64,000 nucleotides of DNA. Source: Promethearchaeota archaeon (lineage in GTDB: Archaea; Asgardarchaeota; Lokiarchaeia; Sigyniarchaeales; SOKP01). The stretch covers positions 12,933-76,932 of the forward strand of contig JBHLNT010000006.1 of assembly GCA_048941265.1 (NCBI GenBank). The letters are read 5' to 3'. The translations under genes were made by a program, and so were the position numbers. Position 1 is the stretch's first letter. Every line of letters begins with the position of its first letter. Shown here piece after piece: positions 18,803 to 24,062 of this stretch. The notes below the pieces were generated by a model. The model saw nothing but the letters and a program-made list of their open reading frames with translations, searched no databases and was not told where the DNA came from.

Positions 18803-19369
18803 TTATGTCACCTTCTCCTCAAATCCTCCTAAATCCATATCCTCTATATGTGCTTCAAATGAAATTAATCCCATGGAGTATTTAGCTGAGATATTTAATT
18901 CTTTTGCTTCAAAATCAAAAACGGGATCCCTTGTCAGATCTGCATTCAGAGCAATATCGGTAAAATTTATATATTCTATATCATCTTTATCGATGGAAAT
19001 TTTAAATTTTTTGCTCTCTCCAGCGGGGATGGTTGCAAACGACTTCTTATCTTCATAGAGTTTCACTCCGGTTGAAACATTTCCGCTAGCTGTAACTCGA
19101 TCATACACCAAATTTAATATTAACTCGACTTTTAGATCTTCCAAGTCAAAATACCCCAAATTATTAATTTCAAATTCAACGTTAATCTCAAACGTATTAG
19201 GATCAAGAAATGGATTTCCCTCGTAATCCACATCAACATTAATATTTTTTTCATTGGTTAATATGAGTGCCGCAGAATAGCCTCCTAAAAATGATACAAA
19301 TGACATTGATGAAGCTAATATAAAGAGGAAGATTCGAACAATTAATCGAAAGATTCTTTCTGGTCTCAT
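18803..19369 (-). CDS. membrane-anchored beta-sandwich (LEA_2-like) protein
   Basis: N-terminal TM helix then beta-rich domain with 'FEINNLGYFDLEDL' and 'TIPAGESK'. Confidence 0.65.
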   Translation of the reverse strand: MRPERIFRLIVRIFLFILASSMSFVSFLGGYSAALILTNEKNINVDVDYEGNPFLDPNTFEINVEFEINNLGYFDLEDLKVELILNLVYDRVTASGNVSTGVKLYEDKKSFATIPAGESKKFKISIDKDDIEYINFTDIALNADLTRDPVFDFEAKELNISAKYSMGLISFEAHIEDMDLGGFEEKVT

Positions 19370-19577
19370 AATTGTTCTCCTAAATTCTTTTTATAATTTT
19401 CATTTATTTTTATAAAATTTTATAGGTAAATATGATTAACACAATTATAGACTTTCATCTATTAAAATTTATATTTTTTCTAATTATTATAGAATGAATA
19501 TTTTGATGTTTATACCCAAATGATTTCGGTTAAAATATAATAGTAAATAATAAAAAAAATGGTGTTAAATAAAAAGA

Positions 19578-19632
19578 AAACGGACGCAACCGCAAATCAC
19601 TAATCTTCTAAAATTTATCAAGAATAGTTCAT
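19578..19632 (-). promoter_or_regulatory. SECIS-like element 1 (eukaryote-type core) plus conserved 3' mini-hairpin
   Basis: RNA: AUGA-A-CUAUUCUU-GAUAAAUUUUAG-AAGAUUAG-U-GAU-UU-GCGG-UUGCGU-CCGU-UU; begins 14 nt after the stop of the UGA-containing gene 19647..20009. Confidence 0.8.
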
Positions 19633-19646
19633 TTTTTTAAAAAAAT

Positions 19647-20009
19647 TTATGATTTTTCTATTTCCAATAAAAATGAGCCTTTATATTTGCCAAATAGTTT
19701 CCACGTTCTCGCGTTGATTTTAATATTGTTTGAATTGATTTCTAATTCATTTTTCAGATTTTTATCAATATACACTTCAAAACTATTAGTTCCAACATCG
19801 ATTTGTTTCCACTTTTCAAAATGCGAATTCTTAGCAATTTTAGGTTTCTCAATTAATTGAACGATATCACTGCAGAAAGTTCCAGATCAAGATCTCGTAA
19901 AATACCTATAAATAACAAGTACTAACTCATCTAATCCATCTTTTTTAAGATATTTATTTTGTTTTTCCTGCAGTAAATTAAAGGCTTCTTCTGAAATTTC
20001 TAAATTTAT
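19647..20009 (-). CDS. putative selenoprotein, HesB/IscA-like (U-x4-C), paralog A; absent from ORF track
   Basis: ATA start after GGGTGA; 120 aa: (M)NLEISEEAFNLLQEKQNKYLKKDGLDELVLVIYRYFTRS-U-SGTFCSDIVQLIEKPK...FEVYIDKNL...LLEIEKS. Single in-frame TGA at 19887-19889 aligns with Cys35 of 20132..20476. Confidence 0.8.
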
Positions 20010-20131
20010 AAATAATCACCCGTTCTTTATTCTATTATTGATTTGAATTGTTTTTTATATATAAATAAAGGAGAGTACTAAAAAAAATATGGTTTATATT
20101 TTAAAATTTCGAAAAAAAATTTATTTATAAT

Positions 20132-20476
20132 TTATCTTTTTTGCTCCTTTAAAATAAGAGAAACATATTCCTCATGAAATTTCTTAGTTATTTGTATATC
20201 TATCAAAATTTCTGCTTTTTCTGGAAAATCACTTAATATTCTCTTTTCAATATAAATAGGAACAATAATACCATAACCATCATCGACTTCTCCATATTTT
20301 TCATAGGATGATGGGTCAATTTTTTCTTCTTTAAAATTCAACTCAAGAAAATAATCTGAATATGAACCCGCACAAGCTTGTTTGCTAATTTGGTAAATAA
20401 TGATCACAGGTTTTTCATTCTTAACCTTAATATTTTCACGAAGATAATCAATTGCTTCTTTTGTTAAAGAAAACAT
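20132..20476 (-). CDS. Cys-containing HesB/IscA-like paralog B
   Basis: MFSLTKEAIDYL...IIIYQISKQA-C-AGSYSD...VPIYIEKRI; TGT at 20372-20374 occupies the UGA column of paralogs A and C; no AUGA core in its 3' UTR. Confidence 0.8.
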   Translation of the reverse strand: MFSLTKEAIDYLRENIKVKNEKPVIIIYQISKQACAGSYSDYFLELNFKEEKIDPSSYEKYGEVDDGYGIIVPIYIEKRILSDFPEKAEILIDIQITKKFHEEYVSLILKEQKR

Positions 20477-20531
20477 CTTAAAATTCTTTTATTTAAATTT
20501 ATTATATCTTTTTTTTTTTTGTTAATATATG

Positions 20532-20585
20532 AAACGGTCGCTTCCGCAAATCGTTTTTCTTCTACCATTTTAAAGAAAAACTCAT
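20532..20585 (-). promoter_or_regulatory. SECIS-like element 2 (eukaryote-type core) plus conserved 3' mini-hairpin
   Basis: RNA: AUGA-G-UUUUUCUU-UAAAAUGGUAG-AAGAAAAA-C-GAU-UU-GCGG-AAGCGA-CCGU-UU; begins 3 nt after the stop of 20589..20969; perfect 9-bp stem. Confidence 0.82.
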
Positions 20586-20588
20586 ATT

Positions 20589-20969
20589 TTAACCATATAC
20601 ATCTTTTTGTTTCTTTATAAATAATAAACCAATTTGTTCACCGTTCAATTCCCCAATTGCAATATCGATAAATACTACTTTTTTTTCCTTGAATTCTGAG
20701 ATCAAATCGTTTTCTATGTAAATTTCAATATCAGGGTTATCTTCAATCTCTTTCCATTGAAAAAAATTTTCCTTCTCATCAAGAACTTTATGCTTTTCCA
20801 CCAATTCGATGACATTACCACAGAATGCCATCGTTCAATTTCCTCCAGAATAGTAAAAAATTGCTAGGACAAATTTATCTACCTGGTTCAATAACTCATT
20901 CTCTTCAAATGGTTTATTTTTATTGTTTATATAATCCAATGCTTTTTTTGAGATTTGTATCTTAAACAA
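20589..20969 (-). CDS. putative selenoprotein, HesB/IscA-like (U-x4-C), paralog C; ORF track shows only the post-UGA part
   Basis: TTG start after AGGTGG; 126 aa: MFKIQISKKALDYINNKNKPFEENELLNQVDKFVLAIFYYSGGN-U-TMAFCGNVIELVEK...IEIYIENDL...; in-frame TGA at 20835-20837. Confidence 0.82.
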
Positions 20970-21194
20970 AAACCACCTATTATAATACTTGAATAATTTA
21001 TACTAGTGAAATTAATAGATAAATTTTTTCAAAAAGCTTTGGAATTCTCAATCTTTAAACATTAACTTCAAAAGCCAGAAGGATTTTTTTATGATCAATA
21101 ATTACCAATACCATTAAGTAGAAATATCATTAGTTCTACATTTTTTTTAAAGATTTAACAATAAACTGTTAAGTAAAAATTTAATTAAATTAGA

Positions 21195-24062
21195 GTGGAA
21201 ATAATGGATATAAACGCATATTCATTGGAAGTTCAAGATGTAGTTAACAAAATGGATACTTCATTGGAAACAGGATTATCGGAAAAAGAAGTAAATAGAA
21301 GAATTGAAGAATATGGTTTTAATGAGTTAAGAGAAACTAAAAAAATTTCAGCATGGGAAATCTTTTTGAGTCAGTTTAAAGATTTTCTGGTTTACTTATT
21401 ATTGTTTGCAATTGCTATATCCCTTATTGTTGGATTTTATGCACTCTCTGTTGGGGACGAACCTACTGAGTTCTTAGATGCTTTAGTAATTTTCATAATA
21501 TTAATTGTCAATGCGGTTTTAGGATTTTATCAAGAGTATAAAGCTGAAAAAGCATTAGAAAGCTTAAAAAGGATGGCCCCCCATAATGCTAAAGTTAAAA
21601 GAAATGGGATCATAAAAGAAATCGAGGTAAAAAATGTAGTGCCCGGAGATATCTTGCAATTGGATGAGGGCGATAAATTACCTGCTGATGCAAGGTTGAC
21701 AAAAGCATATTCGTTATATATTGACGAAGCGATTCTTACTGGTGAATCTCAACCTGTTGGAAAAAATCTTAAATTAATTGAAGAAAAAACAATTCTCGCA
21801 GAACGTAAGAATATGGTATATAGTAATACAATAATTACTCGAGGTAACGGAGAAGCAATTGCTGTAGCAACCGGAATGCAGACAGAGATTGGAAAAATTG
21901 CTGAAAAAATTCAAGCAGAAGAACCTCAACCAAGCCCATTTCAAATTGAAGTTGACCGTTTTGGAAAAACATTAGGAAAATTTATAATGATCATATGTTT
22001 TTTGGTTTTTTTAATAGAATTCTTTATAATCATATTAACTGAGGGTTTAGAATTTGGAAGGGAAGAAATTGATCATATAGTTGCCGCTTTAACGATAGCA
22101 ATAAGTCTTGCAGTTTCTGCTGTACCAGAAGGATTAGTAGTTGTAATAACAGTAGTTATGAGTATTGGAATGAGAAAGATGGCAGATAGAAATGCATTGG
22201 TGAAGACTCTTACTGCTGTTGAAACTTTAGGACGGGTAAATATAATATGCTCAGATAAAACAGGTACACTCACTAAAAATGAGATGACTATCGTAAAACT
22301 ATTTCTCGGAGGAAATGAATATAATGTAGAGGGCGTGGGTTATAATATTGAGGGAAAAATTTTAAATGAATCTGGAAATACTGTGTCATTGGACTTACCC
22401 TATTTAAAGAGATTTTTAGAAGTAGGGAATTTTTGTAATAATTCAAATGTAATTGTTAATGAGGATGGAGTAAATACAGATGTTGTGGGAGACCCGACTG
22501 AGATCTGCTTTAAAATTTTAGCATTGAAAATGGGTCTTGATACAAAAGCTGAGAAGCTTAATGAAATCCCCTTTAGCTCTGATAGAAAAATGATGTCTGT
22601 TGCAATAAAAATCGATAATAAAATATATTCTTTTCTTAAAGGAGCACCCGATGTTTTATTAAAAAATGCAACAAAAGGACTTTATAATGGTGAAGAAAAA
22701 CCAATTAAAGAGCTTATTGACACATTTCTTAAAAAAAATGAAGAGTATGGTAAGAATGCTTTAAGAGTATTAGGATTGGCATATAAACCGCTTAATGAAG
22801 TTTTTAATGAAGAAGATATGGAAAAAGATTATATATATCTCGGACTTGTAGGCATTATTGATCCCGCTCGAGATGAGGTTAAAAAATCAATAGTTCAAGC
22901 AAGAATGGCAGGAATTCGAACTATTATGATCACAGGAGATCATAAAATTACCGCAATTGCGATTGCTAAAGAGATTGGTTTAACTGATTCCGATGATGCT
23001 ATAACAGGTGCGGAGTTAGAGGAGATGTCGGATGAAAATTTAGCAAATCAGCTTCAAAATGTTGATGTATTTGCAAGAGTAACATCGGAGCATAAATTAC
23101 GTATCCTTAAAGTCTTAAAGACTCAAGAAAATGTAGTTTCGATGACAGGTGATGGAGTTAACGATGCCCCCGCGGTAAAAGGAGCAAACGTTGGAGTTGC
23201 AATGGGCTTAAAGGGAACCGAAGTCACCCAAGAAGCGTCGGATATGATCCTTATTGATGATAATTATGCTACCATTGTAAATGCGATCGAAGAAGGAAGG
23301 GGTATTTTTGAAACTACTAAAAGTTTCTTTAGATATATGTTAAGCGCGAATTTTGATGAAATAATCCTAATCTTAACAGCATGGATTCTTATGAAGCTTT
23401 TTGTTAATATTTATCTCGCGATACCCCTTGAACCTATACAAATATTATGGTTAAATATTGCCACTGATGGTATTCCCGCGATGGTCTTGGGTTTAACTCC
23501 TACTGATCCTGATGTAATGAATTTTAAACCACGTAAAGGTTTTAATATGATTGCTGATATCAAGAAAGCTATTATATTTGTGGCTGTTTTTGCAGCTATT
23601 ACTGATGTGGTATTATATGTTGTTTGTTGGTCAATTTTAATTCCTGCTTGGAGTGATCCAAATTCACCGTGGTATGATCCTCGTTTAGTCAATGGAACTA
23701 CGATTTGGGGCGTGAAATATACAGCAGAGGAGTATCAAATTGGTGTAGTACAAACGATTGTTTTTACTAATGTAGTCTTTTTCGAATTATTTTTTGTATT
23801 TTCATGTACTTCTGAATATAAACCAATGTGGGATTTCCCAAACAAACATTTATTCTGGGCCACAGCAATATCATTTGGATTACAAATTGCAATTTTATTT
23901 ACACCACTTTGCATCGCATTCCACGCAGTACCGATGGATCGATGGTTTCACTGGTTAGCAATTTTTTTAGGTTCAATTTTTATTCTACCTGCGGAAGAAA
24001 CAAGAAAATACTTTAAGAGAAGAAATCTTCAGAAAAGTCCACAAAATTTTGAGATCTCATAA
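21195..24062 (+). CDS. P-type (P2A, Ca2+-like) cation-transporting ATPase, copy 1
   Basis: TGES, PEGL, CSDKTGT, KGAPD, MITGD, MTGDGVNDAPA; M5 SANFDE, M6 LWLNIATDG, M8 FFELF. Confidence 0.95.
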   Translation: MEIMDINAYSLEVQDVVNKMDTSLETGLSEKEVNRRIEEYGFNELRETKKISAWEIFLSQFKDFLVYLLLFAIAISLIVGFYALSVGDEPTEFLDALVIFIILIVNAVLGFYQEYKAEKALESLKRMAPHNAKVKRNGIIKEIEVKNVVPGDILQLDEGDKLPADARLTKAYSLYIDEAILTGESQPVGKNLKLIEEKTILAERKNMVYSNTIITRGNGEAIAVATGMQTEIGKIAEKIQAEEPQPSPFQIEVDRFGKTLGKFIMIICFLVFLIEFFIIILTEGLEFGREEIDHIVAALTIAISLAVSAVPEGLVVVITVVMSIGMRKMADRNALVKTLTAVETLGRVNIICSDKTGTLTKNEMTIVKLFLGGNEYNVEGVGYNIEGKILNESGNTVSLDLPYLKRFLEVGNFCNNSNVIVNEDGVNTDVVGDPTEICFKILALKMGLDTKAEKLNEIPFSSDRKMMSVAIKIDNKIYSFLKGAPDVLLKNATKGLYNGEEKPIKELIDTFLKKNEEYGKNALRVLGLAYKPLNEVFNEEDMEKDYIYLGLVGIIDPARDEVKKSIVQARMAGIRTIMITGDHKITAIAIAKEIGLTDSDDAITGAELEEMSDENLANQLQNVDVFARVTSEHKLRILKVLKTQENVVSMTGDGVNDAPAVKGANVGVAMGLKGTEVTQEASDMILIDDNYATIVNAIEEGRGIFETTKSFFRYMLSANFDEIILILTAWILMKLFVNIYLAIPLEPIQILWLNIATDGIPAMVLGLTPTDPDVMNFKPRKGFNMIADIKKAIIFVAVFAAITDVVLYVVCWSILIPAWSDPNSPWYDPRLVNGTTIWGVKYTAEEYQIGVVQTIVFTNVVFFELFFVFSCTSEYKPMWDFPNKHLFWATAISFGLQIAILFTPLCIAFHAVPMDRWFHWLAIFLGSIFILPAEETRKYFKRRNLQKSPQNFEIS

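Follow-up and report, generated by a model that had tools for sequence, protein, structure and literature searches.

The lokiSECIS, a form of the selenocysteine insertion sequence (SECIS) of Lokiarchaeia, links archaeal to eukaryotic decoding of selenocysteine (Sec), and we know of no other such bridge. As set out in the main text of PMC4989117, it consists of an AUGA motif, a stem of 9 bp, a loop of 11 nt that is A-rich over its first five nucleotides and closes with a G, usually after an A, and then GA (or AA); the same text states that no standard SECIS tool detects it. The description was later generalised by Huang 2024 (main text of PMC11227280) as 'eSECIS-like type I', in which the stem spans 7–15 bp with up to two mismatches and the loop 8–20 nt. 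Euryarchaeal SECIS elements are defined in the main texts of both papers by a GAA_A bulge between two G/C-rich stems (PMC4989117, PMC11227280), and the euryarchaeal vhuD SECIS likewise carries AUGA..GA/AA (PMC4989117, main text). According to both main texts, SBP2 was found in no Asgard genome (PMC4989117, PMC11227280). Here, we analyse two hairpins of the lokiSECIS kind, E1 and E2, in a 64,000-nt stretch of a Promethearchaeota archaeon genome (assembly GCA_048941265.1, contig JBHLNT010000006.1, positions 12,933 to 76,932), referred to below as the window. E2 lies behind a small gene with an in-frame UGA (gene A) and E1 behind its UGA-containing paralog (gene C); a third paralog with cysteine in place of the UGA (gene B) stands between them.

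SECIS elements of this kind were already described in 2016, and E1 and E2 are two further members of the class. In our judgement it is very probable that both function as SECIS elements of the Lokiarchaeial lokiSECIS (eSECIS-like type I) class, one in the 3′ untranslated region (UTR) of each gene. We favour this reading because of the anatomy of the hairpins, their covariation, their association with UGA genes only, their likeness to the elements behind classical selenoprotein genes of this organism, and a genome that encodes SelD(Sec), SepSecS and EFsec.

Anatomy of the SECIS cores

Both hairpins were found on the minus strand exactly as an earlier, preliminary description of this DNA had written them (AUGA, a helix of ~9 bp, GAU). 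E2 (20550..20585) comprises AUGA, a 9-bp helix II, an 11-nt loop ending in AG, and then GAU. E1 (19596..19632) follows the same plan, with eight pairs and one U.U in helix II and a 12-nt loop, also ending in AG, ahead of GAU. Each loop starts A-rich, with A at four of the first five nucleotides in E2 and at three of five in E1. The stems of E1 and E2 differ by three two-sided changes (A-U to G-C, C-G to U-A and A-U to U-A), which bears out the earlier statement that the stem changes preserve pairing; at a fourth position, U.U becomes U-A. E2 begins 3 nt past the stop codon of gene A, and E1 begins 14 nt past that of gene C. The distance from UGA to AUGA, previously put at ~250 nt, measures 249 nt for gene A and E2 and 254 nt for gene C and E1. 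The 3′ UTR of gene B (20013..20131, minus strand) contains no AUGA, as had also been claimed, and gave no nhmmer profile match and no match to either of the two covariance models introduced below (R1 and R2) on that strand. In single-sequence folding, E2 was stabler than shuffled sequences (z −3.26) and E1 was not (z 0.18); the argument therefore cannot rest on thermodynamics alone.

Motif frequency and covariance models

The window is 30% G+C, and the genome comprises 5.01 Mb in 361 contigs at 91% completeness. On both strands of this genome, a loose pattern, which required ATGA, 9 bp including no more than one mismatch, a loop of 9–14 nt, and GA, matched 110 times, or ~1.4 times per window; the bare motif alone therefore proves little. 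When the loop was additionally required to be A-rich at its start and to end in G, 27 matches were left in the genome. Eleven of these sit 1–19 nt behind a frame delimited by TAA or TAG that contains an in-frame TGA: three vhuD-like genes, a vhuU-like gene, prxL (U-x-x-U), four further UGA genes, and genes A and C. Across the genome, no strict match occurred <65 nt behind any frame of ≥40 amino acids without a TGA. The motif is thus concentrated behind UGA genes.

Nine other SECIS of the genome, those behind vhuD (three elements), vhuU, prxL and the four further UGA genes, served to build covariance model R1. With filters off, R1 ranked E2 first in the 64-kb window (30.9 bits, E 1.9e-4) and E1 second (21.4 bits, E 0.026); the window search listed 28 matches at E up to 10, of which the third scores 17.2 bits. 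The same model picked up an additional element that the pattern had missed, behind a pair of hdrA (two U) and vhuD (one U) genes, and in a sample of 41 genomes of the same taxonomic family it detected lokiSECIS in every one. A second covariance model, R2, drew on 60 orthologous 3′-UTR elements of other genomes. Over the whole 5-Mb genome, it returned E2 at 81.3 bits (E 4.7e-15) and E1 at 76.9 bits (E 5.6e-14), with no other comparable site; the next-best match scores 23 bits (E 0.67).

Orthologs, UGA association and covariation

A profile of the three paralogs was searched against 400 genomes of the phylum. The gene family is present in 57 of them, including 53 of the 134 genomes of the same taxonomic family; nearly every match carries exactly one internal TGA. 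Among the 71 homologous frames examined, 68 have an in-frame TGA (nearly all in a U-x4-C motif) and three are Cys forms. Three of the 68 U forms end at a contig edge, and two are distant homologs from other families, in which the element is missing. It lies directly downstream of all 63 assessable U forms (nhmmer E ≤ 1.2e-8), of which only 27 are independent finds, the nhmmer profile having been built from the other 36 as regular-expression matches. None of the three Cys paralogs has it.

The alignment holds 62 of these 63 elements, the omitted one having an apical-loop insertion of ~45 nt. Each of the nine helix II pairs shows two-sided changes, with 94.1% of cells paired. The observed values were not reached in any of 500 shuffles, and partners slid by 1–3 columns pair at 40–49%. 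Without a given structure, RNAalifold recovers eight of the nine helix II pairs, each with compensatory changes. The omitted element (locus L040 on G270:C3, ~1860-1962) keeps both stem arms and the mini-hairpin described below. Within the alignment, loci L035, L037 and L048 have AUGU in place of AUGA, L043:1564-1643 has ACGA and L058 has AUAA; these elements are otherwise intact.

The central claim of the preliminary description, that the two hairpins are functional SECIS elements, one per UGA gene, is thus supported by R1, by R2, by covariation and by the 63 of 63 UGA forms. Its proposed comparisons agree: set against the vhuD, vhuU and prxL SECIS of the same genome through R1, E2 and E1 outscore every other site of the window; across homologous UTRs, RNAalifold and pair counts show covariation at every helix II pair; and behind non-UGA genes the motif was encountered neither as a strict match <65 nt past a TGA-less frame nor after any of the three Cys paralogs.

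Mini-hairpin and lower helix

Each core is followed, 3 nt after GAU, by a second, G/C-rich hairpin (the mini-hairpin, or hairpin 2). That of E2 (20534..20547, minus strand) has a 4-bp stem with one G.U and a 6-nt loop, and that of E1 (19580..19593, minus strand) is succeeded by a U-rich run at 19566-19579. Over the 62 aligned sequences, all five tested mini-hairpin pairs covary and 78.6% of cells are paired. The feature is not peculiar to the family of genes A and C, as it is also found 3′ of the best-scoring R1 match of 29 other genomes, one match per genome. The 30 nt past these R1 cores fold with a mean of −4.9 kcal/mol, compared with −1.5 kcal/mol for 290 30-mers drawn at random from the same loci, and the share folding at or below −4 kcal/mol is 72% against 10%. 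As a side observation on the classical vhuD, vhuU and prxL lokiSECIS (loci L085-L114; G000 contigs C138, C251, C262, C301 and C350), nearly all have a mini-hairpin of 4–7 bp located 1–4 nt after GAC, and many enclose it in a lower helix of the type ACCGAAU/AUUCGGU.

E2 has a corresponding lower helix (helix I). Its 5′ strand (20593..20600, minus strand) is supplied by the last codons of gene A (..V-Y-G), which the single-sequence fold puts in a multi-branch fold, and its 3′ strand (20525..20532, minus strand) comes immediately after hairpin 2. Thirty-nine of the 62 aligned sequences (34 of them distinct), all from A-type genes, have a coding sequence that ends in ..Tyr-Gly-stop just 5′ of AUGA. 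The last codons of these A-type genes pair with the bases after the mini-hairpin in 72.8% of cells in register, compared with 29–54% when slid. Permuting the 3′ blocks among sequences gave a pairing of 69.0 ± 1.1%, and none of 1000 permutations reached the observed 72.8%. At the synonymous wobble base of the Tyr codon, the lower helix has T:A in 19 cases, C:G in 5, T:G in 1 and mismatches in 9. Elements of the E1 type offer only an A run opposite a U run, which pairs no better than shuffles, and no lower helix is claimed for E1. Of the 39 classical elements considered, ~40% show the lower helix clearly. Taken as a whole, the signal is a probable three-way junction, judged from these pairing patterns. 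Neither a second hairpin nor a lower helix from the last codons is described in the main texts of PMC4989117 and PMC11227280.

Genes and client proteins

Genes A, B and C are small paralogs arranged head to tail on the minus strand of an AT-rich genome. Gene A (20589..20969) has a TTG start, 126 codons and a single in-frame UGA, and is a candidate IscA/HesB-fold selenoprotein with the motif U-T-M-A-F-C; its UGA (20835..20837), read as Sec, is the codon retained as TGA in 68 of the 71 homologous frames. Gene C (19647..20012, the 5′ end being approximate) also has one in-frame UGA (19887..19889), likewise read as Sec, in the motif U-S-G-T-F-C. Gene B (20132..20476) carries C-x4-S, with neither an in-frame UGA nor a SECIS downstream. 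In the protein alignment, both UGA codons fall in a single invariant Cys column, where gene B has Cys. Contigs of four DNA sequencing runs were compared with the locus, and no variant was seen at the UGA of gene C. Where orthologs of gene C have a start codon, the window has TTT (20010-20012). In the contigs of runs X1 and X2, position 20010 reads A>C, which on the minus strand turns TTT into TTG, the same type of start as in gene A; in X1, only 4 nt separate the variant from the contig end. Either the start of gene C is polymorphic or the assembly merges two strains at 20010.

Pfam gave nothing significant for the three window proteins, and the family profile found no match among PDB sequences. 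Within a set of 46 family members, the weak profile matches agreed with one another: six proteins matched Pfam Fe-S_biosyn, seven matched NCBIfam NF041239 (the CC/Se motif family; best E 8.3e-10) and two matched NCBIfam TIGR01911 (HesB-like selenoprotein; best E 0.0012). Gene A itself reached 13.3 bits against NF041239, below the 40-bit cut-off, and in whole-genome searches neither NF041239 nor TIGR01911 (cut-off 66.35 bits) matched at the locus. An AlphaFold2 model of gene A spans the UGA with a mean predicted local distance difference test score (pLDDT) of 89.4. In a Foldseek search of the PDB, this model matched best with IscA (1r94_A; E 4.7e-4, TM 0.50/0.62) and SufA (2d2a_A; E 5.4e-4), and eight of the top ten matches are IscA, SufA or HesB-like proteins. 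On the predicted structure, the client proteins are of the IscA/HesB (A-type carrier) fold, with a U-x4-C motif. The whole domain would need read-through of the UGA, since U aligns with Cys and the model spans the UGA with an IscA/SufA fold. Many orthologs have no Met after U, and the second half of the protein therefore cannot start independently.

Five selenoprotein families are given for Loki in the main text of Mariotti 2016 (PMC4989117) and seven for Asgard in that of Huang 2024 (PMC11227280). No IscA/HesB-like family is among those five or seven, and in passages of Sun 2021, Valentin-Alvarado 2024 and a 2026 review (PMC13188914) none is named for Asgard either. Literature searches within the collection of papers available gave no further report. 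Genes A and C apparently belong to a selenoprotein family that is absent from the published Asgard lists, as far as main texts go.

Two further loci came up alongside. At locus L074 (G000:C159:1370-2811, minus strand), three tandem genes are each followed by a classical lokiSECIS. Two of their products are paralogs of ~150-170 amino acids with adjacent U-U, and the third is a Cys-rich protein of 72 amino acids with four in-frame UGA codons; Pfam found nothing in the three proteins. These genes may represent further unlisted selenoprotein families. At locus L077 (G000:C349:1730-2075), a 98-amino-acid protein, predicted to be membrane-anchored, has a G-U-G-C motif and weak Pfam matches only, with a lokiSECIS 13 nt past its stop.

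Selenocysteine machinery

Several components of Sec decoding are encoded in the genome. SelD, with one TGA, scores 185.4 bits and EFsec/SelB 246.2 bits, both above their cut-offs, and SepSecS is represented by its C-terminal half only, at a contig start (196.5 bits). R1 gave no match at the selD locus. This silence fits the statement, in the main texts of PMC4989117 and PMC11227280, that SPS carries a different form of SECIS. Among the other selenoprotein loci, L084 (G000:C251:9429-11913) holds hdrA (two in-frame UGA) and vhuD (one UGA) in tandem with a single SECIS behind vhuD, an arrangement known from the literature.

Weighing the interpretation

Several observations weigh against reading E1 and E2 as functional lokiSECIS. 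Both end in GAU, while most other SECIS of the genome end in GAC, and both have A or U two bases 5′ of AUGA, where most others have G. The training elements of R1 score 36–54 bits, above E1 and E2. When R1 was run over the whole genome (E up to 1), a search that scored only 150 of ~9000 first-look candidates, E1 and E2 are not among the matches listed, and by R1 alone E1 would not be significant genome-wide. Rfam 15, run over 19000-21500 at E up to 10, returned no SECIS (RF00031, SECIS_1) and only chance matches to small nucleolar RNA, microRNA and CRISPR families. Non-AUGA cores occur in 5 of the 62 aligned orthologs (ACGA in one, AUAA in one and AUGU in three), to be explained as variants that are tolerated, as signals in decay or as sequencing errors. 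The Cys paralogs all come from one genus (this genome, G170 and G175), so that the control amounts to a single event. In the window, gene C has no in-frame ATG, GTG or TTG after the upstream TGA.

The Sec machinery has gaps as well. Only weak P-loop matches were found for PSTK (31.9 bits against a cut-off of 290.5), and tRNA-Sec was not found, RF01852 giving three sub-threshold matches that resemble ordinary intron-bearing tRNAs. ARAGORN listed neither a tRNA-Sec nor a tRNA with a UCA anticodon in the genome, and Rfam gave no match in the 14.6 kb around EFsec. The Loki tRNA-Sec has an intron in its T-loop (PMC4989117, main text). We take the gaps at PSTK and tRNA-Sec to reflect the 91%-complete assembly and the limits of the tools.

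What else might the hairpins be? The conserved G/C-rich mini-hairpin could itself be the Sec signal, as a SECIS of the methanogen type, in place of the AUGA/GA hairpin. It is conserved, with two-sided changes at five of five pairs, it does not occur behind the Cys paralog, and it belongs to the composite that R2 finds only behind genes A and C. However, it has a mere 4–5 bp and a loop of 5–6 nt, with no GAA_A bulge between two stems, and it never stands alone, following classical lokiSECIS cores in 29 other genomes. The AUGA/GA hairpin by itself matches the independent model R1. We regard this substitution as highly unlikely. It also seems very improbable that the elements are structures conserved in the 3′ UTR for some other function, for instance transcript termination or stability, with the UGA a true stop or subject to SECIS-independent read-through. 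A terminator is brought to mind by the U-rich run after the mini-hairpin of E1 and those of most C-type orthologs, but elements of the A type and vhuD type have no such run. The core is common to E1, E2 and the SECIS of vhuU, prxL, vhuD and hdrA-vhuD genes, and it follows 63 of 63 assessable UGA forms and none of the three Cys forms. Moreover, the protein domain is complete only with the UGA decoded.

It is scarcely credible that the hairpins are accidents of AT-rich sequence next to genes that are split or in decay. Covariation over 13 genera, R2 E-values of ~1e-14 genome-wide and the joint retention of UGA and SECIS in 63 of 63 cases all speak against it, even with the loose motif as common as 110 per genome and the E1 fold no stabler than its shuffles. 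The missing canonical start of gene C in the window, which would suit a decaying gene, is countered by the TTG variant in contigs of two runs. The reading of E1 and E2 as functional lokiSECIS is accordingly the one pursued here.

A possible mechanism can be outlined on this basis. The AUGA and GA strands would form a sheared G.A/A.G (kink-turn-like) core at the base of the 9-bp helix, with the A-rich loop on top. This core RNA might recruit archaeal EFsec with Sec-tRNA(Sec), either directly or through a putative adaptor that binds kink-turns. The UGA ~250 nt upstream would then be decoded as Sec and not as a stop, placing Sec at the Cys position of the paralog, within the U-x4-C motif of an IscA/HesB-fold protein. 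We infer the kink-turn fold, its binding factor, Sec insertion and any role of the mini-hairpin or lower helix from the features described above.

A broader proposal is offered as a tentative possibility, on which we would place limited confidence. The Sec signal may be a three-way junction made of a kink-turn-like AUGA/GA core, an obligatory G/C-rich mini-hairpin 1–4 nt after GA and, in E2-type genes, a lower helix from the last sense codons that would be melted by the terminating ribosome. E1 and E2 might then form a distinct GAU subclass serving an uncatalogued family of IscA/HesB-fold selenoproteins with U-x4-C, and the tandem Sec/Cys/Sec arrangement might record the gain or loss of a SECIS together with a switch from Sec to Cys.

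The locus adds two well-supported members to the lokiSECIS, with ~60 covarying orthologs. It also widens the accepted sequence space of these elements, which now takes in GAU endings, a loop of 12 nt and rare cores other than AUGA. Gene callers split a protein family that is widespread in Lokiarchaeia (present in 53 of the 134 genomes of the same taxonomic family) at its Sec codon. Because the Cys copy lost the signal or never had it, the tandem Sec/Cys/Sec arrangement is a natural control. The conserved mini-hairpin and the lower helix are concrete, mutable features for a first functional dissection of an Asgard SECIS.

Comparison with known systems

The preliminary description had seen in these hairpins a core of the eukaryotic type, as opposed to a bacterial or methanogen one. 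This view is supported, with two amendments: the Rfam model of the eukaryotic SECIS does not match, and the geometry had already been described as lokiSECIS. Set beside eukaryotic SECIS RF00031, E1 and E2 go unmatched, and a hairpin stands where the internal loop would have its 3′ side. With the euryarchaeal SECIS of Methanococcales and Methanopyrus, they share their location, the 3′ UTR of a selenoprotein gene in an archaeon. In contrast to that class, which has a GAA_A bulge set between a 10-bp G/C-rich stem and a G/C stem of 3 bp, their helix is A/U-rich; the bulge is absent from both the main hairpin and the mini-hairpin of E1 and E2.

Kink-turns can be elaborated into three-way junctions ('k-junctions'). 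The lokiSECIS would resemble one, with a G.A/A.G core at a junction of three helices, if the lower helix, the mini-hairpin and the upper helix all form; this likeness is a lead only, the lower helix being supported for elements of the E2 type and not for those of the E1 type. On the protein side, the clients recall the HesB-like family TIGR01911 and the CC/Se family NF041239 as small proteins of the predicted IscA/HesB fold with Sec near the first conserved Cys position. They differ in having U-x4-C and not UxGP, the motif listed for TIGR01911 (PMC13188914, main text), and in having no C-terminal Cys pair.

The closest relative is the lokiSECIS, or eSECIS-like type I, itself. E1 and E2 depart from it in their client genes, their GAU ending and their scores, which fall below those of the SECIS of the same genome from which the model was built. 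The loop of E1, at 12 nt, misses the exact length given by Mariotti and fits the Huang model, and that of E2 has the original 11 nt. In E2 all nine stem positions pair, and E1 has eight pairs of nine with one U.U, within the two mismatches that Huang allows. As in the lokiSECIS, AUGA stands directly 5′ and GA directly 3′ of the stem, and both elements begin a few nucleotides past the stop of a UGA gene, in a genome that encodes SelD(Sec), EFsec and a partial SepSecS.

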